Shown: positions 45,231 through 60,650, numbered from the stretch's first letter. The stretch is DNA of 64,000 nucleotides from a virus (IMGVR_UViG_3300005573_000057:64001-128000); one strand, 5' to 3'. Numbers and translations: made by a program. The notes: a model not told the origin generated them from the letters alone.

Positions 45231-45600
45231 ACCAGATAACTAGAGACCACTAAGTAAACCAAGGAACCAAGGAACCAGAGACCACTAAAGACCACTAAAG
45301 ACCACTAAGTAAACCAAGGAACCAAGGAACCAGAGACCACTAAGTAAACCAAGGAACCAAGGAACCAGAGACCACTAGAGATTACTAAAGGCCACTAGAG
45401 ACCACTAGAGATTACTAAAGTCCACTAGAGACCACTAAAGACCATTAGAGAGCCGACAGTGACCTATAGACCAGTAGAGAATAGGAAATTAGTAGACCAC
45501 TAGAGATTACTAAAGGCCACTAAAGGCCACTAGAGACCACTAGAGACCACTAAAGACCACTAAAGACCACTAAAGAGTCTATAGTGACCTCTAGGCCCAT
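45231..45600. repeat. Tandem 10-nt repeats (ACCACTARAG) interleaved with 8-nt AACCAAGG repeats; possible replication origin
   Basis: Many degenerate ACCACTAGAG/ACCACTAAAG units and three copies of ACCACTAAGTAAACCAAGGAACCAAGGAACCAGAG; adjacent A-rich tract at 45150-45230. Confidence 0.85.
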
Positions 45601-49054: not shown

Positions 49055-50133
49055 AGGTCGCCATTCTAGGGGATCTTCATTTTGGGGCCAGTGGCGATTC
49101 GGCTCGGATGCACGCTTACCAAAAGCGCTTTTTTGAGGAATGCCTTTTCCCTACTCTCAAAGAACGCAACGTTGAGCACATCTTTCAGCTAGGGGATGTG
49201 TTTGATCGACGGAAGTTCATCAATTACTATACGATGGCAATGTCGTATCAGAACTTCTTTCATCCTCTTGAGAAAAATGGCTTGAGGATGATTACGATTG
49301 TTGGCAATCACGATATGTTCTGGAAAGACGATATGAGCATCAATTCTCATTCGCTCTTGTTGTCTGATTACAAGAATATTCAGTCAATCTCCAAGCCAAC
49401 AGTGATCAATGTAAAGGGTTGTCGATTCGCCTTTGTTCCGTGGATTTGCAAAAGCAATCAAGCAGAAGTGACAGAATTCCTCAAAAATTGCAACGCTGAT
49501 GTATGCATGGGCCACTTTGAAATCGAAGGATTTTCGATGAACAAAGGGAGTGCTCCTGGAAGTGGTTTGTCTCCGAAGGTTTTTGAACGGTTCGATCATA
49601 CGTTTTCTGGTCACTACCATACTCACTCAATCCAAGACAACATCATCTATACTGGCACCCCTTATGAGTTGACGTGGATTGATGCTGATGATCCCAAGTG
49701 TTTTTTCATCTATGACACGGATGCCCGTACTTACGAAAAGATCATCAACCCCTTTACATTGTTTGAAAACTTGTGGTACAATCCAGCATTAGATACAAAA
49801 ATGTATCTTAAACAAGAACTCGAAGGAAAGTATGTAAAACTTCATATCGCTTCTGATGCTCCAGTGACAGACTGGAACCACTTCAACAAATGTGTCTCGG
49901 AAATTACGGATTCGGCACCTTCTGAACTGAAAGTGTCGGATCACTCTGTTGTAAAGTCTTCTGAACAAGCTTCCGAAGATGTAGATGATGCAACCAACGT
50001 TCTCAGTGCAATCAAAACGAACATTGATATGGTTGTATCTGACGATGCTATTCGATCTGATTTGTTTTCTTACATGAACGGCGTATACGAAACCGCACTC
50101 GAAACAATCGTTGACAAAGATGGTGGCCTGTGA
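49051..50133 (+). CDS. gp47: Mre11-like nuclease gp47
   Basis: GDLHFG, GDVFDRRK, GNHD, GHFE and SGHYH. Confidence 0.95.
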   Translation: MKVAILGDLHFGASGDSARMHAYQKRFFEECLFPTLKERNVEHIFQLGDVFDRRKFINYYTMAMSYQNFFHPLEKNGLRMITIVGNHDMFWKDDMSINSHSLLLSDYKNIQSISKPTVINVKGCRFAFVPWICKSNQAEVTEFLKNCNADVCMGHFEIEGFSMNKGSAPGSGLSPKVFERFDHTFSGHYHTHSIQDNIIYTGTPYELTWIDADDPKCFFIYDTDARTYEKIINPFTLFENLWYNPALDTKMYLKQELEGKYVKLHIASDAPVTDWNHFNKCVSEITDSAPSELKVSDHSVVKSSEQASEDVDDATNVLSAIKTNIDMVVSDDAIRSDLFSYMNGVYETALETIVDKDGGL

Positions 50134-51842
50134 AATTTCATAAAATCGAATTCAAGAATTTTTTATCCTATGGCGCTGCACCTACTGTCATCAATCTTGA
50201 CTATGATGGAATTACGTGCATTGTGGGTCGCAATGGTGCTGGAAAATCCTCTATACTTGAAGCTATCTGTTTTGCTTTGTTCGGTAAAGCGTATCGAGCA
50301 ATCAACAAAGGCGATCTGGTCAATACGGTCAACAAAAAAGAAAGCCTAGTCACTCTCTATTTGAGTCACAAGGGGCACGATTACCGCATTGTGCGTGGCA
50401 TGTCGCCAAACGTCTTTGAAATTTATGACAATGATGTTTTGATTCCGATTCCCCCCGATGTGCGCGAATATCAGAACAAGTTGCAAGCGTTGTTGCGAAT
50501 CAACTACAAAAACTTTACCCAGAGTATTTTTATCGGGAATGCAGGATTTACACCGTTTATTCAACTAAGTGCCGCTGAACGAAGGAAAGTTGTTGATAAT
50601 CTTCTTGATATTGATGTGCTTGGCGTAATGCTAACCAACGTCACAAAGGATCTATCAGCAACGGTTACACGCATTGCCGAATCGAAAAACACTATTGTAA
50701 AGAACAAGATCGAAGTTGATGGATACCAACAAGTCATTGATGTAATCAAGAATCAACAAACTTCCTTGGTCAATGAACTCGACTCCAAGATCGAATCTTT
50801 GGATGCTGAAATAGCATCTTTGGGAGGGCGCCTAGATGGGCATACAACGGCTTTGCAGATTGCCAAGGATGGGTTGGCCTTGGTTGATAAACAAATCGAA
50901 TCCGAAGTATCTGGAAAGACTGCCGAAATCAACAAACTCAAGTGGGAAATTCAGCAATTCAAAGTGTCCATCGAAAAGATGGGAACCGATACAATTTGCC
51001 CACACTGCTATCAATCCGTATCGGAAGAACATCGGCAAAAAGTTAGGGATGGGTTCGAATCGTCTTTGAATGAGTTGACACCAAAATTGAAGTTGTTGAC
51101 CAAAGAACGTGATGAAAAAGAGTTCGAGTATGCAGAAAAGCGCAAAGAATTTGAAGCAACGGTAACAGCAGAAAGATCGGAAATTTCTACCATCAATGGC
51201 ATCATAGCTGAAAAAAAGAAAACAAAATCTGGTCTTCTTGAAGAAAAGAAAAAAGCGTCCTCGAACAACTCGGAGTTGCTGGAAGATACAAAAAAGAAGA
51301 TGAAGGATGTGATTGATCGTACCAACGCAATATTGAAAGAACGAAAGAAAGACATTCAATTGCAAGGCATTCAAGAACAAGCCCAACAACTCTTACGAGA
51401 CAGTGGCATCAAAAGCTACATTATCGGAAAATACCTTCCTATGATCAATAACAGCATCAATGAACGCCTTGATGCAATGGAGTTCCCTGCTACATTCGCA
51501 TTCGACAACGAATTCAAGGAACGGATCTTTATTCGACGCCGTGACGATGTTTCATATTTTTCTTTGAGTCAGGGCGAACGCCAGCGCGTTGATATGGCGA
51601 TCCTTTTTACTCTCAGACATATCGCGGCACGCATTCATGGTGCAGATTCTAATTTGTTGATTCTGGATGAAACTTTTGATAGTTCATTGGACGATACAGC
51701 GTGCAACTATCTACTTAAACACCTCAAAGAACACGAAAAATCTGTGGTGATCATTACCCATAACGATTCTGTTGCAGAACAAGCAGACCGACTTTTGACA
51801 GTCAAAAAGAACGGCAACTTTAGCGAGATTAAAATTGAATAA
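50130..51842 (+). CDS. gp46: Rad50-like ATPase gp46
   Basis: KNFLSYG, GRNGAGKS, zinc hook CPHC, signature SQGE and LILDE. Confidence 0.95.
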   Translation: MKFHKIEFKNFLSYGAAPTVINLDYDGITCIVGRNGAGKSSILEAICFALFGKAYRAINKGDLVNTVNKKESLVTLYLSHKGHDYRIVRGMSPNVFEIYDNDVLIPIPPDVREYQNKLQALLRINYKNFTQSIFIGNAGFTPFIQLSAAERRKVVDNLLDIDVLGVMLTNVTKDLSATVTRIAESKNTIVKNKIEVDGYQQVIDVIKNQQTSLVNELDSKIESLDAEIASLGGRLDGHTTALQIAKDGLALVDKQIESEVSGKTAEINKLKWEIQQFKVSIEKMGTDTICPHCYQSVSEEHRQKVRDGFESSLNELTPKLKLLTKERDEKEFEYAEKRKEFEATVTAERSEISTINGIIAEKKKTKSGLLEEKKKASSNNSELLEDTKKKMKDVIDRTNAILKERKKDIQLQGIQEQAQQLLRDSGIKSYIIGKYLPMINNSINERLDAMEFPATFAFDNEFKERIFIRRRDDVSYFSLSQGERQRVDMAILFTLRHIAARIHGADSNLLILDETFDSSLDDTACNYLLKHLKEHEKSVVIITHNDSVAEQADRLLTVKKNGNFSEIKIE

Positions 51843-52842
51843 AAAAACTATTTTGCTTCATCCAGCAGATGAACAAGGATGCGGAAATTATCGAGTTATT
51901 CAGCGCGGAGTGATGTGGAACACGCACTATGCGCCAACCAACGACTTTTTCTGTAAACAGTCTTTTCATTATTTGAACAGAGAAACTCTGTTGACAGAAA
52001 ATGTAAAAATTGCTTTTTATCAAAGACAAAATACGGTAGAACAAGTTAAACACATCGAATTCTACAAAGATATGGGAATTCGGCTAATCAATGATACAGA
52101 CGATCTTTTGTGGAAGATTCCGCCGTCTAATCCGGTCAAAAGTGCATATGGGGTAGAAGCAGTCAAATCATTGAAACGGTCAATGCAACTCGCTGATATA
52201 AACACAGCTAGTACGATTCCGCTTGCTCAAGAAATCAAGCGATTTTCTGGAAATAGTAGCATCGTCATTCCAAATTTTGTGTTTCCCAACTTTTTTGTTA
52301 AAGAACCAAAGCGGCGATTGCCGGATAAAAAGTTTGTTGTTGTATGGGCCGGGTCTCAAACTCATGATGAAGATTTGTCACCGCTGTTTCAAGTTGCCGC
52401 AGAAATGAATGATATTGAGTTTCGTATCATTGGATACAAGCCCAAAGGATTCAGAGAAGTTTCGAACATTGTTTATGTTTCGGGTGTATCATTCGTTGAT
52501 TATGACGCTCTTTTGAAAATAGCTACTGCTGATGCATCACTGGCTCTTGCTCCTTTACATCCATCACTTTTCAATGAGTGTAAAAGCAATTTGAAACTTT
52601 TAGAGTATGGTTCTCAAGGATTGCCAGTTATTTCATCGGACATTTACCCATATCAAGACAACCCGTATCGAGTTGAATGGAACAAAAAACAATGGAAAAA
52701 ATGGGTAGACCTGATTCGATTTTTCAAAGATAACGAAGAAGAACGGTTCAAAGCCGCCGAAGCATCACTTGCTTATGCAAGGAAATTTGCTGCTGATCAT
52801 CCCGACAATCTACAGCAACTCAAAAACCTTTTTTCACTTTAG
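51835..52842 (+). CDS. GT-B fold glycosyltransferase
   Basis: GCGNYRV, DTDD, WAGS.TH..D and APL....FNECKSNLKLLEY. Confidence 0.85.
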   Translation: MNKKTILLHPADEQGCGNYRVIQRGVMWNTHYAPTNDFFCKQSFHYLNRETLLTENVKIAFYQRQNTVEQVKHIEFYKDMGIRLINDTDDLLWKIPPSNPVKSAYGVEAVKSLKRSMQLADINTASTIPLAQEIKRFSGNSSIVIPNFVFPNFFVKEPKRRLPDKKFVVVWAGSQTHDEDLSPLFQVAAEMNDIEFRIIGYKPKGFREVSNIVYVSGVSFVDYDALLKIATADASLALAPLHPSLFNECKSNLKLLEYGSQGLPVISSDIYPYQDNPYRVEWNKKQWKKWVDLIRFFKDNEEERFKAAEASLAYARKFAADHPDNLQQLKNLFSL

Positions 52843-52852
52843 GATACATATC

Positions 52853-53293
52853 ATGGAAAATCAACAAAACGAAGAACTTCAAGCAGATCTTTCAATGGAA
52901 GATTTTTGGAAAACTGCCGTGTTCGCTGCCGAAACTTGTCACAATGTCAATCGTGTGTATTGTCAATCCTTGGGCGATTATAGCCAACCGACATGGGATG
53001 ATGCTGACGATGAAACTAAAGCCACTGCAATCACTGTAGTAGTAAGCATTGTAACTCATGGCCGGGATGCAAGCCCTCAAAAGTCCCATGAATCGTGGAT
53101 GAATTCCAAGAAACTTGATGGATGGGTCTATGGCGAAGTCAAGGATGCAAAAAAGAAAACACATCCTTGCATGGTTCCCTACAGTGAACTTCCTCCTGAG
53201 CAAAAGTTCAAAGACGAACTTTTCTACACGATTGTTCGCACGTTTTTTCCATTGAGCAAAGAAGTAGAGGAAAGTCGCATCATCACGCTCTGA
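52853..53293 (+). CDS. Stand-alone RyR-domain protein
   Basis: HESWM..K..DGWVYG..KD..KKTHPCMVPY.ELP.EQK.KD. Confidence 0.85.
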   Translation: MENQQNEELQADLSMEDFWKTAVFAAETCHNVNRVYCQSLGDYSQPTWDDADDETKATAITVVVSIVTHGRDASPQKSHESWMNSKKLDGWVYGEVKDAKKKTHPCMVPYSELPPEQKFKDELFYTIVRTFFPLSKEVEESRIITL

Positions 53294-53310
53294 ATAGGTT
53301 TTCTAACTAC

Positions 53311-53733
53311 ATGATGGAAAAAACATTCAAAAAATATCTACAAGAAATGTCACGGAGCACAGCGCGGGGTGTCGAAGCGCAATTGAACGCCATTGTTGCC
53401 GACACTCCGTTTGACATTGTGTTCACGAACCATTTTTATGATCGTCTGGAAGGACGAGAAGATTCGGTGACGCCCGCCGAACTGGTTTCATCTTTCGAAA
53501 AGTTCTTTCGGAAGTTTCACGAAACTCTTACAACGATGGTGGGTAAGACACATGCCGAAATTGCTGTGATCCTCAAAGATTATGCATCCAAGCTGAACAT
53601 TCCTCTGGAAATTGAAGCCGGTAAAAAGGATAGCATGGGCAAATACACCATCCTTGGAATTACGATCATGCGCAAGAATCCCCGCGAGTTCCGTAGTAGC
53701 GGGAGAAGTGAAAAGCAGTTCGATGTGTATTGA
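53311..53733 (+). CDS. Putative internal head protein (capsid-targeting N-terminus)
   Basis: KTFKKYLQE start; FTNHFYDR...LNIP...TIMRK core; late motif upstream. Confidence 0.7.
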   Translation: MMEKTFKKYLQEMSRSTARGVEAQLNAIVADTPFDIVFTNHFYDRLEGREDSVTPAELVSSFEKFFRKFHETLTTMVGKTHAEIAVILKDYASKLNIPLEIEAGKKDSMGKYTILGITIMRKNPREFRSSGRSEKQFDVY

Positions 53734-53736
53734 AAG

Positions 53737-54414
53737 ATGAAACCAAAAATCATCTTTTTTGTTCCTGGTGCCTTTTCTGGGCAAGAATCGTTCAACTTCA
53801 TTCGGCAAAACCTTGCGATTTCGTTCACAGAACCTGTTGTCACTTTTTCCTACGACATAACCGAAGAACCTCTCGAAACGATTGTTACTCGATTGGTCAA
53901 AGAAACTCAGAAGATCGACAAAGAAAAGTATGATGTGGTGATCATTGGTCACAGCTACGGTGGCTTGATTGGGAGGCTGGCTTGTTTACAATTTGCTTCT
54001 GCAAGGGAACTTATCACGATCAATTCACCGCATCATGGTTTCCCAGCCTATTCGTACAATTCGTTTTTGTTCCCCATTTCAAACATGATGTTTTACCAAA
54101 ACACCAATGAATACAACGAGTTGATCAAGTTCAATGGGCGTTGTTCATTACCAGAAGGGATACGCCATCTAAATATTACAGGAGACCGTGGGGTTGATTC
54201 TTGGTTTTTCAATACAAACGAGAACGATACTGTCGTTCCTTGTAAGTCACAAACATTGGTTACAAATAGAGTTCATTGGTATTCGTGTGAAGAATGGTTT
54301 GAAAAATCCTGTCCTGTTCATGATTTGGTGGAGATTTGTTTCCATTTGAATCATTTTGAAGTTCTTTTAGCAGAGAACGTGTGTAAATCTATCGGTATAT
54401 TTTTAGGAGTCTAA
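53737..54414 (+). CDS. Alpha/beta hydrolase (PGAP1/lipase-like)
   Basis: GHSYGG nucleophile elbow, NSPHHG, NDTVV and HFEVL. Confidence 0.85.
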   Translation: MKPKIIFFVPGAFSGQESFNFIRQNLAISFTEPVVTFSYDITEEPLETIVTRLVKETQKIDKEKYDVVIIGHSYGGLIGRLACLQFASARELITINSPHHGFPAYSYNSFLFPISNMMFYQNTNEYNELIKFNGRCSLPEGIRHLNITGDRGVDSWFFNTNENDTVVPCKSQTLVTNRVHWYSCEEWFEKSCPVHDLVEICFHLNHFEVLLAENVCKSIGIFLGV

Positions 54415-54415
54415 G

Positions 54416-54601
54416 ATGACCAATATCAAAGCGTTTTTTAAGTTGACTGTTCCGGGTCATGAAGAAATCGAAATCCCATTCGAGGATGCCGAAGTTCTTT
54501 ACGGTCAACTCAAAGATATTTTTGGAGCAAAATACACGTTTCCAATGGATAAACCCATCCCCCGTCCGTTTGGCCCCGAAGATTACAAGGTTACTTGCTG
54601 A
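54416..54601 (+). CDS. Small hypothetical protein
   Basis: RBS AGGAG; precedes a terminator. Confidence 0.6.
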   Translation: MTNIKAFFKLTVPGHEEIEIPFEDAEVLYGQLKDIFGAKYTFPMDKPIPRPFGPEDYKVTC

Positions 54602-54617
54602 ATAGCACTATTGCAGA

Positions 54618-54644
54618 TAAAGGCCCCTTAATTGGGGCTTTTTT
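54618..54644 (+). terminator. Intrinsic terminator
   Basis: GGCCCC-TTAATT-GGGGCT followed by a T run. Confidence 0.85.
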
Positions 54645-54699
54645 GTGGGCGCTTTCTTTGTACTCTAAATACTGAATAGACCTTCCAGATTTCATACCA

Positions 54700-55341
54700 A
54701 TGCAAACATTCAAACAATATTTGAGCGAAGAAGATCAGAATTTGGCCAGCATAGCCACGACTATTAACCGATGGTTCAAAGGGTACTACATGAACGCGCC
54801 TTTGACTTCATCTGATGAAGACACTATGATCAATGCCTTCCGTGAAGCCATAAAACTCATTCCTAACCCTTCTCGTCCACCGTCTAATACCCTGTATAGG
54901 GTGTTTCCTGATCGTGAGTTTAAGACCCTCCTAGACGCCGAAACGAACAAGAAGCTTGATGCTTTGAAGCCGGGACAGTTCGGAGCCTATGAAAAAATCG
55001 TGAACGACGCATTGGATGGTCGTAATGTCTCACTTAACACAGGCTTAAAAAACATTCAATCATGGTCTGATTCGCAAGATGCCGCAAAACGTGTCTATGA
55101 GGAAATTGAAGACCATCGAGTTCCTTACGTCTTGGCTCAGAGTTCGTTCAGTAATAGTGAAATTCTGTTTTATTACAAAAACATAAACGAGTTTCTTAAA
55201 GCAACTTTTAACAATCTTGGAATTACCAGTGCTATCCGCAACTCTTTGGATAACTTGAGTTATATTTTTGCCTATCAGAAAGAAGTTGTTGTCGATACCC
55301 GCAACCCACGTCCAGTCAAGATCCTGTCATTTTTCTATTGA
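54700..55341 (+). CDS. Putative encapsidated ADP-ribosyltransferase-like protein A
   Basis: MQTFKQYLSEE targeting peptide; LYR / QSWS / QKE motif triad. Confidence 0.6.
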   Translation: MQTFKQYLSEEDQNLASIATTINRWFKGYYMNAPLTSSDEDTMINAFREAIKLIPNPSRPPSNTLYRVFPDREFKTLLDAETNKKLDALKPGQFGAYEKIVNDALDGRNVSLNTGLKNIQSWSDSQDAAKRVYEEIEDHRVPYVLAQSSFSNSEILFYYKNINEFLKATFNNLGITSAIRNSLDNLSYIFAYQKEVVVDTRNPRPVKILSFFY

Positions 55342-55344
55342 TCT

Positions 55345-56043
55345 ATGAAAACATTCAAAGAATACTTGTTGGAAGCAACAACTGTTGTACAACAAGATGC
55401 AACCCCCTATGTCAATGCTGTTGCTCTATTGCGAAAATGGTTTGATGGTGATTATATGGCAATGGATCAGTCAACCTTTAGTTCGAGTCAACAAAAACTG
55501 GTCGATGCATTCAAGTTGTTTACAGACTATATCAAACCAGCAAATTTCGGCCCATCGACTTTGTATCGCGTCTTTCCAGAAGATCATTTGAAACAGTTTC
55601 TATCAGACAGTGATGTCAAGAAGTCCGAATCTTACACACAAGGAGACAAAAAAAGATTTTACAATGCGGTTCTCAAAGGAAAGAACGTCGATTTATCAAC
55701 TGGAATCAAAGAAATCCAAAGTTGGACTGAATCTTTGAGTTCGGTAAAAACTTTTCACCGAGATATTCATTTTCATCAAAAACAACATGAATGGTTTTTT
55801 CTTGTTAAAAGTTCATTTTCTGATAGCGAAAAACTATTCTACTATGGTATGTTTACACCAATTATAGATAAACTTAACGATTTTGATTACACTACTACAA
55901 AACTCAATCAGAAATGGCATGATGTTTTATTCGATTTTATTTATTTAAGACAGTCATATGAAAACCAAAAGGAAACAGTAGTTGATACCCATCAACCAAG
56001 AGAAGTTGAAATTCTTGAGGTTACTAATCCCCTTCACGCATGA
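55345..56043 (+). CDS. Putative encapsidated ADP-ribosyltransferase-like protein B (paralogue of A)
   Basis: MKTFKEYLLE; LYRVFP / QSWT / QKE. Confidence 0.6.
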   Translation: MKTFKEYLLEATTVVQQDATPYVNAVALLRKWFDGDYMAMDQSTFSSSQQKLVDAFKLFTDYIKPANFGPSTLYRVFPEDHLKQFLSDSDVKKSESYTQGDKKRFYNAVLKGKNVDLSTGIKEIQSWTESLSSVKTFHRDIHFHQKQHEWFFLVKSSFSDSEKLFYYGMFTPIIDKLNDFDYTTTKLNQKWHDVLFDFIYLRQSYENQKETVVDTHQPREVEILEVTNPLHA

Positions 56044-56819
56044 AAACATTCAAAGAATATCTTAACGAAAATAGCGGGTTGATCACTACTTCTCTTGACG
56101 AAGATCCAGAGAAGTTTCTGAATACCTATTGCAAAGCGTTTGCTAAAAGTGATGTTCCGTTGTTGTATCGGGGAAGTAGTCATTTGTACGAAGTCGGAAA
56201 AGAAAACCTTAAAAGGAATCGTCTGACTTTTTTGGATGCAACATCTTCTTATCGAGAATCGAAATCAGGCCCAAACTACAATACGATGATTCTTGATTAT
56301 CTGTTCAAAACCAAATTTCCTCAATTTCCTTTACGTTCAAAAAGTTTGATTGCTACGACTGACATTTCTTATTGTAAAACTTTTGGCCCAAGAAACCTGA
56401 TTATTCCGTTTGATGACGACAAGCTTGGTTGTGTAAATGATGGTGATATATGGTTTGTTAGATTGAATTTTACCGAATCTGTAACTTTCTTAAACTTTTT
56501 TCGGGCGCTTACCGCAGCATCTTCTGATTACAGACTACCAACTGATAATATTGATGAATTTTTTGCTGCTCTAGACAAGGGAATCAAAGAAGACAAGTTC
56601 ACAAACCCGTATATTCCAATCGTGATTCCAACAAAGGCCAAGATCATTGCAGCCTTTACAGAAGTGATTGAGAACAAATTTAGAGCATGTAAACCGGCAT
56701 CCTTCGATAATCCGGGCGAAGTATGGTTTGGGCCAAAAGCTGTCGCTGTCCCTTTTAACAATTCATTTGATTACGCATACATTGAAAGAAAAAATGGAAA
56801 GTGGGTTATCAACCAATAA
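56040..56819 (+). CDS. Putative internal head protein, divergent ART-like
   Basis: MKTFKEYLNE; LYRG / SLIATT / GEVWF. Confidence 0.5.
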   Translation: MKTFKEYLNENSGLITTSLDEDPEKFLNTYCKAFAKSDVPLLYRGSSHLYEVGKENLKRNRLTFLDATSSYRESKSGPNYNTMILDYLFKTKFPQFPLRSKSLIATTDISYCKTFGPRNLIIPFDDDKLGCVNDGDIWFVRLNFTESVTFLNFFRALTAASSDYRLPTDNIDEFFAALDKGIKEDKFTNPYIPIVIPTKAKIIAAFTEVIENKFRACKPASFDNPGEVWFGPKAVAVPFNNSFDYAYIERKNGKWVINQ

Positions 56820-56826
56820 AACTAAT

Positions 56827-57558
56827 ATGAAAACATTCAAACAGTACATAGAAGAATCTATCAATGACCGTGGAATTTTCAAGGCGGTCTTTGTCATTGG
56901 TATCCCCGGTGCTGGGAAGTCCTATGTTGTCAACCAACTTGGCGGTATTGGTGCCAAAGTTGTCAATACAGATCGAGCAACAGAGTTTTTAACCAAACTA
57001 CTCCATACTCCGTCAACCGATGATAACTGGTCTACATTTCGAGATCGGTCTTACAAGATTACCCGCGAGTATCTAGTACAGTATGTCAACGGGATGCTTC
57101 CTCTTTTTGTGGATGGAACATCCAATGATGTATCGAACATTCTGAATCGTCAGGGGATTTTGGAATCTGTTGGTTATGATGTAGGGATCGTTCATGTCAA
57201 GACCTCTTTGGATGTTGCACTACGCAGGGCAGACGAACGCGGGAAGAAGATCAACCGAACAGTGTCCCCGGATTTTATCAAGCAAGTCTATAATATTTCT
57301 GAACAAAATGCTAACTACTTGGAAGGGAAGGTTAAGTTTTTTAGGACAATCAACAACGATTCTGATGAACTTGGCGATTCGGAAATCAACAAGGCGTTTG
57401 GATCTGTGGAATCGTTTTATGGTCAACCAGTAGAAAACGTGGTTGGTCAACGCAACATTCAAAAACTCAAACAAGACCATCAGAAGTATCTGGTTCCTAC
57501 CATTTTTTCAATGGATGAAATTCAACGCAAGATAGACAGTTGGTATCGAACAGCATGA
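56827..57558 (+). CDS. Putative encapsidated P-loop kinase (AAA_33/zeta-like) A
   Basis: MKTFKQYIEE; Walker A GIPGAGKS, VN.D, VDGT and lid A..R...R. Confidence 0.75.
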   Translation: MKTFKQYIEESINDRGIFKAVFVIGIPGAGKSYVVNQLGGIGAKVVNTDRATEFLTKLLHTPSTDDNWSTFRDRSYKITREYLVQYVNGMLPLFVDGTSNDVSNILNRQGILESVGYDVGIVHVKTSLDVALRRADERGKKINRTVSPDFIKQVYNISEQNANYLEGKVKFFRTINNDSDELGDSEINKAFGSVESFYGQPVENVVGQRNIQKLKQDHQKYLVPTIFSMDEIQRKIDSWYRTA

Positions 57559-58379
57559 TCACATTCAAACAGTACCTTAACGAAGCTATTGTATCTTTTG
57601 GTAACAATCCAAAAGGACAAGTTGTTATTCTTGCCGGTGGCGCTGGATCTGGAAAGGGGTTCATTCTACAGTATGGAATCGACATTGATGGTAAACACAT
57701 TGATACGGATGAAATAAAAAGTTTGGCTTTGCGCTGGCCTCAATTACAAGATGCCGTCAAAGAAAAAACCGGCATAGACATTCAAAAACTAGATCTTCGC
57801 AACCCATCCAATACGGAACAACTCCACGATATTATGAAAAAAATGGGATGGTATGATGATCGTCTTTTGAATCTCATGGCAAGCATTGCTGCTGGTAATC
57901 CAGAAAACCGGCCAAATTTGATTTTTGATGTTACCTTGCAAAATTTTTCTAAACTTGAAACATTGTGTGATGATGTTAAATCTGTTGGGTATTCACCGCG
58001 TAACATCAATATAGTATGGGTGTTGGATAGTGTGAAAATGTCGATTCAAAAGAACCTTTCTAGGGACAGGGTTGTTCCGACTGACATTTTGGTTAAAACA
58101 CACGAAGGAGCAAGCCAAACGATGCGCGAAGTTTTAGACGACTATGATCGTGTGAAGCAATATGCCGATGGTTACTACTACATCGTGTTCAATGCTGTTG
58201 GAATTGATAATAATGTTTACCATGACTCAACAAAAGGAATTTTTGTAGATGTAAAAGGCAGACTTTTGATCAAAACTCCCGGAAATGGGATTGATCAAAG
58301 TAAATTGACAAAGGAAGTGGTCGAAAAGATCAAATCATACGTCCCCAACCCTGATATTTGGAAAGACACCCAAACTTAA
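57555..58379 (+). CDS. Putative encapsidated P-loop kinase B
   Basis: MITFKQYLNE; GGAGSGKG, D.D, IFDVT and N..R.RVVP. Confidence 0.75.
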   Translation: MITFKQYLNEAIVSFGNNPKGQVVILAGGAGSGKGFILQYGIDIDGKHIDTDEIKSLALRWPQLQDAVKEKTGIDIQKLDLRNPSNTEQLHDIMKKMGWYDDRLLNLMASIAAGNPENRPNLIFDVTLQNFSKLETLCDDVKSVGYSPRNINIVWVLDSVKMSIQKNLSRDRVVPTDILVKTHEGASQTMREVLDDYDRVKQYADGYYYIVFNAVGIDNNVYHDSTKGIFVDVKGRLLIKTPGNGIDQSKLTKEVVEKIKSYVPNPDIWKDTQT

Positions 58380-58384
58380 AAATT

Positions 58385-58780
58385 ATGGCACTCGCAACAG
58401 AAGTCAATTGGATCGACGTATCCTTATCCTTCCAGCCTATTCCGGGTTCGGGAGACATTGGAGTTAAGAAGAACGAAGAAGCCATCAAAGGGGCTATTCG
58501 GAATCTTGTGTTGCGTTCTCACTATGAAGTTCCGTTCCATAGTGAAGAAGGTTCTGATGCTGCAAACATCTTGTTTGAGACCTTCAACCCGGTTTCACTC
58601 ACAGCGATGCGTGATTCTTTAATTCGACTTTTGAGTACATACGAGCCTCGGGCGTTTGTGAACGATGTTCAAATTCTCACAAATCCCGATAATAACTACA
58701 TTATAGTAACGATCATTTTCACCCCGATCAATTCAAACAATCAGGTAACGGTAACAGTTCCGCTAAAACGCACCCGGTAA
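58385..58780 (+). CDS. gp25: Baseplate wedge protein gp25
   Basis: AIK..IRNLV....E.PF, LFE and YEPR. Confidence 0.92.
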   Translation: MALATEVNWIDVSLSFQPIPGSGDIGVKKNEEAIKGAIRNLVLRSHYEVPFHSEEGSDAANILFETFNPVSLTAMRDSLIRLLSTYEPRAFVNDVQILTNPDNNYIIVTIIFTPINSNNQVTVTVPLKRTR

Positions 58781-58784
58781 AGCA

Positions 58785-60650
58785 ATGACTACGCAGCTAT
58801 CAACAACACTCCAAAGTCCAATTCCGCTGACTGGCTTCGATAGTATCAAGGCTGATTTGATTGCTTATTTGCAATCGCTTCCGCAGTTTACTGACTATAA
58901 CTTTGCCGGATCTAATCTACAGGTTATCATCAATCTATTGGCGTATAACACGTATTACAACATTCTGTATCACAATCTAAGCATCAATGAAATGTTCTTG
59001 GATTCCGCATCCAAGCGAGATAGTGTTGTCAGTCGAGCATCCGAACTCGGTTATTTGCCTCCAAGTACAACATCGGCTGTGGCGATGGTCAATTTGCATG
59101 TCAATCCGGGGGCTTCTGGTTCCCCGGCACAAGCCGTTTTACCGGCTTTTTCTCAATTTTCTACATCCATCAATGGAACTACGTACAACTTTTACACGCT
59201 CCAAAGCTATGTCGCGCCTGTCAATACAGACGGAAGCTATGATTTTAATAACGTCACGATTGTCGAAGGAACGCCAGTCAAAAACACCTATACCTTTACT
59301 GGCAACACTTCGACTCAGATCCCAATTGTTATAGCCAATCAAAACAGTGATGTAAGTACGTTGTCTGTGAATGTCTACGCCTCTGCTGGTAGCGACACTT
59401 ATACAGTTTACAATTCAATCAATGATCTAACTTCTGTCACATCGACAACCCCGGTTTACTTTATTAAAGAAATCCGAAACCAACTGTATGAAGTGAGTTT
59501 TGGTCAGGGTGGATTTGGAATGACACCTCCGGCTAATTCGATTGTGCAATTGACATACTTGGTCAGTAGTGGCCCAGCCGCCAATGGTGCCTATGGATTC
59601 GCCTTTGTACCGAATCAATTTTTGGGCGCTACTGTTGTCGTTACAACGACCTCAAATGCCGCTGGTGGCGCTCCATTGAGTTCCTTGGACACAATTCGCT
59701 TCAATGCTCCGCGTCAGTACGCTGCCCAGAATCGTGCCGTGATTGCTGAAGATTACATTCAGTTTGCTTACCAGTATTTTCCATCGGCCCAGAGCATCAA
59801 TGCTTGGGGTGGTGAGGACAATGTTCCGCCACAGTACGGCCAAGTTTTTATTTGTGTTCAACCTACTGGCGCTGCGTTGTTGACCTCTGCCCAATCTTCT
59901 CTTTTGGTTTCCCAACTAAAAAACAAGGCAGTCACAACTATCATTCCTAAAATTGTTCCACCAGATCAACTTTTGATCAATATTACTTCCGATGTTTATT
60001 ATAATCCATTATTGACAAACAACACTCCAAATTTTTTGCAAGCTAGTGTAACCAGCACAATTTCGAACTTTGGGTCAACGATTCTAAAATTTGGGTCGAT
60101 GTTTAGATATTCGAATCTGCTGACTGCCATTGATCAAACTGATCCATCTATTCTCGGAAACACAACTTCGATTACGTTGACTCGGGTTTACAACAATCTT
60201 TATATCTACTTCGGAACAACAAGTAGCTACTCGTTTGTTCTTGGCAATCCAATCGAATATACCGGGAATCCAGAAGAAGCCATTTTGACGACCGGATTCA
60301 TGATCGCTGGTGACACGGTTAACACCTATTACATTGACGATGATGGAGTTGGAAATTTGAGATTGTTCTACTATGACATAAACCAGAACAAAACCATTAC
60401 AAATACTGCAATTGGAACGGTGGACTATAGTTTTGGCCAGATTTCAATTCCTTCTCTGAATCTTTCTAGCGTTGTTGGTGGGCAGTGGAGTTTTAACATC
60501 AAACCACAATCCTACGATGTTTATTCATACCAGTCTCAGATTTTGTCAATCAATCAATCTGCAATCAATGTCAATGTCATTGTTGATCCAACGTCCACTG
60601 GTCAACTGGTAAGTTCAACTGGTTATCCATTTAGTAGCATTCGGTCATGA
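58785..60650 (+). CDS. gp6: Baseplate wedge protein gp6
   Basis: FTDYNFAGS, LAYNT, NEMFLDSA, IRFNAP..YAAQNRAV..EDY and WGGEDN.PP.YG. Confidence 0.95.
   Translation: MTTQLSTTLQSPIPLTGFDSIKADLIAYLQSLPQFTDYNFAGSNLQVIINLLAYNTYYNILYHNLSINEMFLDSASKRDSVVSRASELGYLPPSTTSAVAMVNLHVNPGASGSPAQAVLPAFSQFSTSINGTTYNFYTLQSYVAPVNTDGSYDFNNVTIVEGTPVKNTYTFTGNTSTQIPIVIANQNSDVSTLSVNVYASAGSDTYTVYNSINDLTSVTSTTPVYFIKEIRNQLYEVSFGQGGFGMTPPANSIVQLTYLVSSGPAANGAYGFAFVPNQFLGATVVVTTTSNAAGGAPLSSLDTIRFNAPRQYAAQNRAVIAEDYIQFAYQYFPSAQSINAWGGEDNVPPQYGQVFICVQPTGAALLTSAQSSLLVSQLKNKAVTTIIPKIVPPDQLLINITSDVYYNPLLTNNTPNFLQASVTSTISNFGSTILKFGSMFRYSNLLTAIDQTDPSILGNTTSITLTRVYNNLYIYFGTTSSYSFVLGNPIEYTGNPEEAILTTGFMIAGDTVNTYYIDDDGVGNLRLFYYDINQNKTITNTAIGTVDYSFGQISIPSLNLSSVVGGQWSFNIKPQSYDVYSYQSQILSINQSAINVNVIVDPTSTGQLVSSTGYPFSSIRS

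Follow-up and report, generated by a model that had tools for sequence, protein, structure and literature searches.

A block of genes sharing a T4-like capsid targeting peptide in an uncultured phage suggests enzymes injected with the DNA

The locus and its shared N-terminal peptide

This study concerns a block of genes at positions 53,303 to 58,379 of a 64,000-nucleotide stretch of viral DNA, hereafter the window, which covers bases 64001-128000 of a 140,449-bp viral contig in IMG/VR (IMGVR_UViG_3300005573_000057) with an estimated completeness of 79%. Six co-directional open reading frames (ORFs) of this block, at 53311, 54700, 55345, 56040, 56827 and 57555, start with one and the same kind of peptide, M(x)TFK(E/Q/K)Y(L/I)xE, hereafter the tag. 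The N-termini read, in order, MMEKTFKKYLQE, MQTFKQYLSE, MKTFKEYLLE, MKTFKEYLNE, MKTFKQYIEE and MITFKQYLNE. An earlier note on the same DNA, the original prediction, had reported the peptide at these six starts, and all six were confirmed on the + strand (Table 1).

A loose eight-residue pattern for the tag, [TS][FY][KQER][EQKRD][FY][LIVTM]xE, was run against the six-frame translation of the whole contig. It matched nine times, with all nine matches at ORF N-termini, and about 0.1 matches are expected by chance, this being the mean of 30 nucleotide shuffles and likewise of 30 residue shuffles. Six of the nine tagged proteins are in the window and three outside it. The tag ends in Y/F-[L/I]-x-E in eight of the nine; the exception is 45402+, which has F-V-A-E. 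Different copies use different codons for Leu, Tyr, Phe and Lys and are preceded by unrelated DNA, which points to selection on the peptide and not to a recombining DNA cassette. That the motif is a product of chance or annotation, or that the ORFs are not real genes, is exceedingly improbable: the excess over the shuffles is large, every match stands at an ORF start, and homologues or a confident fold exist for each of the ORFs.

Table 1. Features of the tagged block and its surroundings, and the tagged ORFs elsewhere on the contig (window coordinates, except where marked genome)
Feature	Position	Strand	Description
Putative gp46 (SbcC)-like ORF	50130-51842		judged by eye
Glycosyltransferase	51835-52842		upstream of the tagged block
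RyR-domain protein	52850-53293		PF02026, 46.8 bits; phrog_5154; untagged; directly upstream of the tagged block
CTAACTA motif	53303-53309	+	late-promoter-like; starts 8 nt before the ATG of tagged ORF 1
Tagged ORF 1	53311-53733	+	140 aa, starting MMEKTFKKYLQE; small viral-only domain, weak RegB/BECR-RNase-like lead
Untagged alpha/beta hydrolase	53737-54414	+	PGAP1/lipase-like, GHSYGG nucleophile elbow; PF07819, 32.7 bits, above cut-off
Untagged ORF	54416-54601	+	61 aa; no family match
Intrinsic-terminator-like hairpin	54623-54644	+	GCCCC-TTAATT-GGGGC, then T6; read directly; the signal scan lists it on the minus strand
CTAAATA motif	54665-54671	+	one mismatch from CTAACTA; starts 35 nt before the ATG at 54700
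Tagged ORF 2	54700-55341	+	213 aa; Family A; R67, S148/S149, Q193-x-E195
Tagged ORF 3	55345-56043	+	232 aa; Family A; R75, S156, Q208-x-E210; protein modelled
Tagged ORF 4	56040-56819	+	259 aa; Family B; ATGA overlap between its start and the ORF 3 stop; phrog_12810 positions 6-244
Tagged ORF 5	56827-57558	+	243 aa; predicted P-loop kinase, Walker A GIPGAGKS, DxTN-like DGTSN; Zeta_toxin/AAA_33
Tagged ORF 6	57555-58379	+	274 aa; predicted Zeta_toxin-type kinase, GGAGSGKG; ATGA start overlaps the stop of ORF 5; phrog_5268, E 3e-79
gp25-like baseplate wedge gene	58385-58780	+	PF04965, E 3e-4, below its cut-off; begins 5 nt downstream of the tagged ORF 6 stop
Putative gp6-like baseplate wedge gene	58785-60650	+	label from position and the analyst's reading
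Tagged ORF outside the window	genome 27980	-	263 aa; Family B
Tagged ORF outside the window	genome 31409	-	250 aa; Family A
Tagged ORF outside the window	genome 45402	+	74 aa

Relationship of the tag to the T4 capsid targeting sequence

What, then, is the tag? When translated from NC_000866, the T4 genes ipII and ipIII both start with MKTYQEFIAE, and ipI with MKTFKEFTS. Judged on this direct comparison, the tag MKTFK(E/Q)Y(L/I)xE reads as the capsid targeting sequence (CTS) peptide of T4 with conservative changes, in agreement with the proposed likeness to the internal proteins IPI-IPIII. In T4 head maturation, gp21 cleavage falls after an (L/I)-x-E motif. Both sequence features of T4-type CTS proteins are found on the contig, that is, a tag ending of the (L/I)-x-E type and a gp21-type prohead protease (PF03420, 112 bits, genome 13919-14383). 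Residue 55 of the contig's capsid protein marks a VLSE↓AA site, comparable to the presumed cleavage site of the tag.

The contig belongs to a distant, uncultured T4 relative. Two capsid genes of the PF07068 family are present, one gp23-type and one a second, gp24-like paralogue, and the portal, tail sheath and scaffold proteins are encoded as well.

Foreign proteins can be loaded into T4 heads by the CTS alone, and T-even phages hold many unrelated internal proteins at variable loci, whose only common feature is the CTS and which are injected with the DNA (PMC3012670, PMC12373910). Diverse CTS-sharing internal proteins of T-even phages are attributed to Repoila 1994 and Mullaney & Black 1996 in the form in which these are cited in the same two papers. 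Each of the proteins Ip1-3 of T4 inhibits one specific GmrSD restriction enzyme (PMC12373910, Nat Commun 2025). Because CTS-sharing internal proteins of T-even phages in variable loci are already established, the delivery route is not new, and the suggestion of an undescribed system has to be given up in this respect: such loci were described in 1994-1996 and revisited in 2025.

The correspondence with IPI-IPIII covers several traits, namely a very similar N-terminal peptide, MKT[FY][KQ]E[FY][IL]xE, ending in Glu; unrelated cargo sharing only the tag; genes that are partly clustered and partly scattered; and a gp21-type protease. There are differences too. The T4 proteins are small, non-enzymatic GmrSD inhibitors, whereas the cargo here measures 140-274 residues and has mostly enzyme folds; nine tagged genes are present against three in T4; and the locus lies between recombination/glycosyltransferase genes and gp25.

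The leader might also be read otherwise, as a translation-initiation or stability element, or as a recognition peptide for another enzyme, with the proteins acting in the cytoplasm in the manner of T4 ModA and ModB. This would agree with Pelagibacter phage HTVC008M, in which a homologue of the 56827 kinase without a tag is followed by a 596-aa "cytidyltransferase" (L181, record 106562-109011). On the other side, the tag is nearly identical to the experimentally defined CTS of T4, the residues are conserved and not the codons or the upstream DNA, the tag always ends in a protease-type Glu, and the genes are linked to virion genes. A leader that has nothing to do with packaging is for these reasons quite unlikely. 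A tag-modifying radical-SAM enzyme was also considered; no radical-SAM gene is present on the contig, and this idea is hence without support.

Other N-termini were seen on related proteins. Some Family B paralogues (see below) of a distantly related IMG/VR contig, IMGVR_UViG_3300045918_000354 (L009:10762-13893), start with MKLxELYEA or MRLAELFEAE, and ten tandem Family B copies of Agrobacterium phage Atu_ph07 (L166) start with MRWxQLxE. These may be alternative capsid-targeting leaders. T4 Alt, too, has a leader in this style.

Predicted ADP-ribosyltransferases

The tagged ORFs had been described as mostly unrelated beyond the tag, and this description stands in part only: 54700 is a paralogue of 55345, both 56827 and 57555 are of Zeta_toxin type, and 56040 also appears to have an ADP-ribosylation fold.

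The first family, Family A, consists on this contig of 54700, 55345 and 31409-, which are paralogues with 28-36% identity (54700 versus 55345, 33%, E 3e-29). An alignment of 15 homologues shows no variation at R75, W127 and E210 and hardly any at S156, and 14 of the sequences have [QE]xE; the tag stands at the start of 11 of these 15. Predicted strands 72-78, 151-157 and 210-214 carry the motifs, which come in the order expected of an R-S-E ADP-ribosyltransferase (ART), with Arg on strand 1, Ser-x-Ser/Thr on strand 2 and [QE]-x-E ahead of strand 5. The AlphaFold (AF2) model of the 55345 protein has a predicted local distance difference test score (pLDDT) of 85. Searched with Foldseek against the PDB, its best matches are the pertussis, cholera, LT and Plt toxins, at E values of ~0.05-0.1. 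In a VIA-wide structure search, the best seven matches are all mono-ARTs, with Z-scores of 5.5-6.5 over 140-157 aligned residues: Vis (Z 6.5, root-mean-square deviation (rmsd) 3.9, 140 aligned), C3stau2 (Z 6.3) and C2-I (Z 6.1) lead the list, and iota-like, VIP2 and Listeria ART toxin are also among the seven. As for viral models, the closest come from Achromobacter phage Motura, phiN3 and Bacillus phage G and are uncharacterised; entries for ModA, ModB and "ADP-ribosylase" rank lower (Foldseek E 0.01-0.2).

No Pfam family matches Family A at an E value of 0.1 or better, and PF03496 (ADPrib_exo_Tox) matches nothing on the contig even at E 10. Compared as sequences with those of the solved structures, Family A, Family B and ORF 53311 gave nothing meaningful. 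A lone match of Family A to L31 among the solved structures was taken as chance. Since no curated ART model matches, Family A is described as ART fold plus ART motifs and not as part of PF03496 or of the Alt family. Based on the model and the alignment, it is predicted to be a new and rare R-S-E ART family with intact motifs, outside the Alt family; among 1.8 billion representatives searched exhaustively with a profile, there were only 18 members.

T4 Alt is the obvious point of comparison. It is an R-S-E ART that is made late, packaged and injected, and the same is predicted for Family A. Unlike Alt and its paralogues ModA and ModB, Family A has no Pfam ART match. The proteins here are 213-250 residues long and bear an IP-type tag, whereas T4 Alt has ~680 residues and a different N-terminal propeptide. 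Alt-family genes are linked to baseplate genes too (PMC5512222).

Family B is represented by 56040 and 27980-. Their relation is weak (E 3e-4) and is bridged by eight paralogues in L009. The family alignment has the same residue throughout at G45, R72, R99 and E227 and almost throughout at R44 and S102, and the conserved motifs [YFW]RG, PxRSxSLI and ExW suggest an R-S-E-like triad. All the best VIA-wide matches belong to the ADP-ribosylation superfamily, with BC2332 (Z 6.7, rmsd 3.5, 132 aligned) ahead of Arr (Z 5.6); lower down come DarT and, at Z 3-4.7, PE-like, diphtheria and cholix toxins, exotoxin A, PARPs and Tpt1. BC2332 is classified as SCOP d.166.1.6 (PMC3000352). Foldseek gave no significant match for the Family B model. 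Going by the modelled structure, 56040 is predicted to be a divergent ADP-ribosylation-fold protein. ART-like cargo had been foreseen in the original prediction, and it is upheld by fold matches and catalytic motifs for 54700 and 55345 and by ADP-ribosylation-fold matches for 56040.

Predicted kinases and their pairing with Family B

The last two tagged ORFs, 56827 and 57555, are by their motifs and profile matches predicted zeta-toxin-type P-loop kinases, the former of the DxTN type. With PF06414 (Zeta_toxin, cut-off 22.3) they score 34.1 and 38.8 bits, respectively, and both being above the cut-off, the kinase-like cargo that had been proposed is confirmed at this level; 56827 also matches PF13671 (AAA_33) with 36.1 bits (cut-off 27). 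The nearest solved relative of 56827 is the tRNA kinase PSTK (E 0.007), and for 57555 no relative was found among the sequences of solved structures. Walker A, the Zeta_toxin/AAA_33 matches and the DxTN-like motif of 56827 are shared with the zeta toxin/PezT UDP-GlcNAc kinases and with DxTN kinases such as T4 Pnk and PSTK; unlike in zeta/PezT systems, no antitoxin partner appears in the ORF list, which was the only place searched. The family of 57555, phrog_5268, is widespread in cultured T4-like phages: homologues occur in 214 cultured phage records, including Slopekvirus, Aeromonas, Cronobacter and other phages, and one of them, KP15_200 of Slopekvirus KP15, starts with the CTS-like MKSFKQFTES.

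The least expected result is the linkage between Family B and the 56827-type kinase. One PHROG profile, phrog_12810 (788 positions), spans 56040 and then, at positions 260-415, 56827. This consecutive coverage suggests that fused forms exist; no fused 56040-56827 protein was seen in this analysis. A Family B pattern search gave 41 IMG/VR loci, in which Family B genes stand in tandem, up to ten in an array, and a 56827-type kinase adjoins Family B in about 14 of the 41, both usually tagged. The pair is also present in two cultured jumbo phages, Ralstonia phage RsoM2USA, where it is gp255 and gp254, both tagged, and Agrobacterium phage Atu_ph07, where Family B has ten tandem copies. Many homologues of Family B and of the kinases carry the tag.

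Might the tagged proteins be loaded by means of the tag and yet do no more than fill the core or scaffold, or do their work within the head, so that they are degraded or retained instead of being injected as effectors? The T4 CTS/core proteins gp22, gp67 and gp68 are largely degraded by gp21, and (L/I)xE may also occur within the cargo proteins. Several facts oppose such a role. The catalytic motifs of the ARTs and kinases are conserved across homologues, which argues for enzymatic function under selection; the NAD+ that ARTs require and the ATP that kinases require are not expected to be available inside a packed head; and T4 IPI-III and Alt are injected (PMC12373910, PMC9503650). We regard the filler role as unlikely.

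The small domain and the untagged genes

Tagged ORF 1 encodes a domain of ~125 residues that is also found inside larger phage proteins. Five homologues conserve HFxDRLxGRE and GITIMRKxP, and its neighbours in the Atlas are all viral, including large phage cytidylyltransferase proteins; DUF4258 scores 0.81 only. RNase-like proteins had been proposed to be among the cargo. An hhalign comparison with T4 RegB sets HFYDRLEGRE on HLLDRAIQRE over 24 columns, with a probability of only 2.4%, and this weak match puts H41, D44, R45, R49 and E50 of ORF 1 on H48, D51, R52, R56 and E57 of RegB. PF10715 (RegB) reaches E 0.012 in one of the five homologues; neither this model nor PF14076 (DUF4258) matches anything on the contig. 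The "RNase-like" label is accordingly a weak lead and not a finding, and the proposal is not sustained.

The untagged hydrolase has a homologue in L009, again alongside the tagged array (L009:19625-20209; 24% identity, E 6e-9). A search with NCBIfam gave sub-threshold matches only.

Distribution of the tag

The exact tag, when back-translated, was found on at least 120 IMG/VR contigs carrying at least 135 tagged ORFs, with a median of 190 residues among the matches listed. The 135 listed ORFs and the nine of this contig form 41 sequence clusters, so that many unrelated proteins bear the tag in other phages as well, and the claim of one tag on differing proteins holds beyond this contig. One cluster accounts for 80 of the 135 listed ORFs: its members have ~190 residues, start with MKTFKEYLxEx(K)K, and lie at loci among L020-L139 (for instance L020:7405-, L024:5848- and L027:3088-). 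Among the matches listed, this is apparently the commonest CTS-tagged protein family of uncultured phages. Other clusters, judged by eye, comprise lysozyme-like, HAD-type hydrolase-like and further ART-like proteins.

A gene pair precedes the tagged array in both L009 (L009:3937-5747) and RsoM2USA (L182:446-2121), encoding proteins of ~414-453 and ~145 residues. The ~145-aa protein of the L009 pair is TnsA-N-like (PF08722), its RsoM2USA counterpart having been matched only by eye, and an N-terminus similar to that of the pair is also found in L014.

Word-based homologue searches gave only one to four relatives per protein, and a megablast of the locus against cultured phages found no near-identical DNA. 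The closest relatives, 87%, 70% and 83% identical to tagged ORFs 1, 3 and 4, come from contig(s) of 22,362 bp, probably a single one. On other viral contigs, the gene for a relative of the gp6-like protein (34-35% identity) directly follows a 130-aa ORF that stands where gp25 would. In these more distant relatives (gp6-like ~34% identity), no tagged ORFs stand ahead of gp25, and other baseplate/tail-type structural genes occupy that place.

Expression signals and operon layout

As had been proposed, the block is just upstream of the baseplate genes, in an operon-like layout directly ahead of gp25 and gp6. From 54700 to gp6 all gaps measure 8 nt or less, with two ATGA overlaps, and this tight packing into gp25/gp6 fits co-transcription with the baseplate genes. 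The hairpin at 54623-54644 divides the block into ORFs 53311, 53737 and 54416 on one side and those from 54700 onward on the other.

The motif CTAACTA occurs 17 times on the + strand of the contig and five times on the - strand, mostly 29-57 nt before ORF starts. For 13 of the 17 on the + strand, an ORF starts within ~60 nt downstream, including tail sheath, portal, scaffold and tail-tube-like genes; the spacing to the tail sheath, portal and scaffold starts is 45-57 nt. The three tagged genes outside the window have CTAACTA or ATAACTA starting 34-36 nt upstream of the ATG. Late-promoter-like motifs had been claimed at 53303 and 54665. They are not the late promoter of T4; what stands is that they belong to a contig-specific CTAACTA set found before structural genes. 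Late timing of the tagged genes is plausible on these grounds.

Sigma-70-type promoters are not above the level of shuffles (15 versus 18). No Shine-Dalgarno sequence was seen by eye upstream of the tagged genes (53250-58390; 27980, 31409, 45402), except possibly at 45402+, which suggests a host relying little on initiation led by such sequences.

Interpretation

Taken as a whole, the six ORFs and the three elsewhere on the contig are likely to be T4-like internal head proteins, loaded through a CTS, cleaved and injected. What would be the sequence of events? Reading docking, cleavage, ejection and enzymatic activity from the sequences, we infer that the tagged proteins would be made late, along with the virion genes. 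Their first 10-12 residues, the CTS, would dock them on the scaffolding core of the prohead, and cleavage by the gp21-type protease behind the closing Glu (Y-[L/I]-x-E↓) would take the tag off. Once matured, the proteins would remain in the DNA-filled head and would then be ejected into the host with the DNA; action would therefore be possible before any phage gene is transcribed. The predicted cargo would comprise two R-S-E ARTs, an ART-fold protein paired with a DxTN/zeta-type kinase, a further zeta-type kinase, and a single small domain. The injected enzymes would most likely serve takeover or counter-defence by modifying macromolecules or metabolites of the host.

A number of observations pull in the other direction. 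Two ORFs within the block (53737-54414 and 54416-54601) are untagged. No Pfam ART model matches any tagged protein, all structural Z-scores are middling (6.7 or less), and the pLDDT of the Family B model is a moderate 70. With regard to timing, the T4 late promoter TATAAATA is found only three times in 140 kb and never before the tagged genes, and CTAACTA is itself a putative promoter. The copy at 53303 lies too close, at 8 nt, to serve tagged ORF 1 in the usual way; the start of this ORF reads ATGATG, and the spacing may mean an upstream promoter, a leaderless mRNA, or a promoter for the downstream hydrolase gene.

Head-packaged ARTs, zeta-toxin-like kinases and BECR RNases of phages have been predicted earlier (Iyer et al. 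2017, PMC5512222; Iyer et al. 2022, PMC9503650). The effectors that are fused to MuF or portal proteins, or form part of polyvalent proteins, have the same predicted repertoire of ART, zeta-toxin-like kinase and BECR RNase. The difference is in the delivery: those effectors travel by covalent fusion or within one giant polypeptide, whereas here separate small proteins have a putatively cleavable tag of ten residues. What is new, in summary, is the cargo: a rare predicted ART family, a divergent, tandemly expanded ART-fold family whose partner is a tagged DxTN kinase, and a zeta-type kinase that also bears the tag.

Conclusions and outlook

In some phages the Family B gene has expanded to 4-10 tandem, diverged copies, and one can ask what its partnership with the kinase is for. 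A bold idea is that the 56040 and 56827 families form a conserved, capsid-delivered two-enzyme module, which would carry out a coupled, NAD+/ATP-dependent modification of host or phage nucleic acid or protein. We hold this to be rather unlikely. One possible role of such a module may be pre-emptive RNA repair, or the disarming of a defence before any phage gene is expressed. If true, it would be an injected enzymatic counter-defence pathway that has not yet been described.

Both the rare ART family and the recurrent pair of ART-fold protein and kinase are open to direct test in culture, the latter in RsoM2USA and Atu_ph07. The tag also offers an easy means of predicting from sequence which phage proteins are injected, and this can be used on metagenomes, where its exact form is already present on the IMG/VR contigs counted above. 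As for the biology of these viruses, a T4-type tag placed on enzymes means that the phage probably injects them ready-made with its DNA. Distant relatives of T4 would, as these data suggest, use the address tag of T4 to deliver whole enzymes, among them ARTs and zeta-type kinases resembling bacterial toxins.

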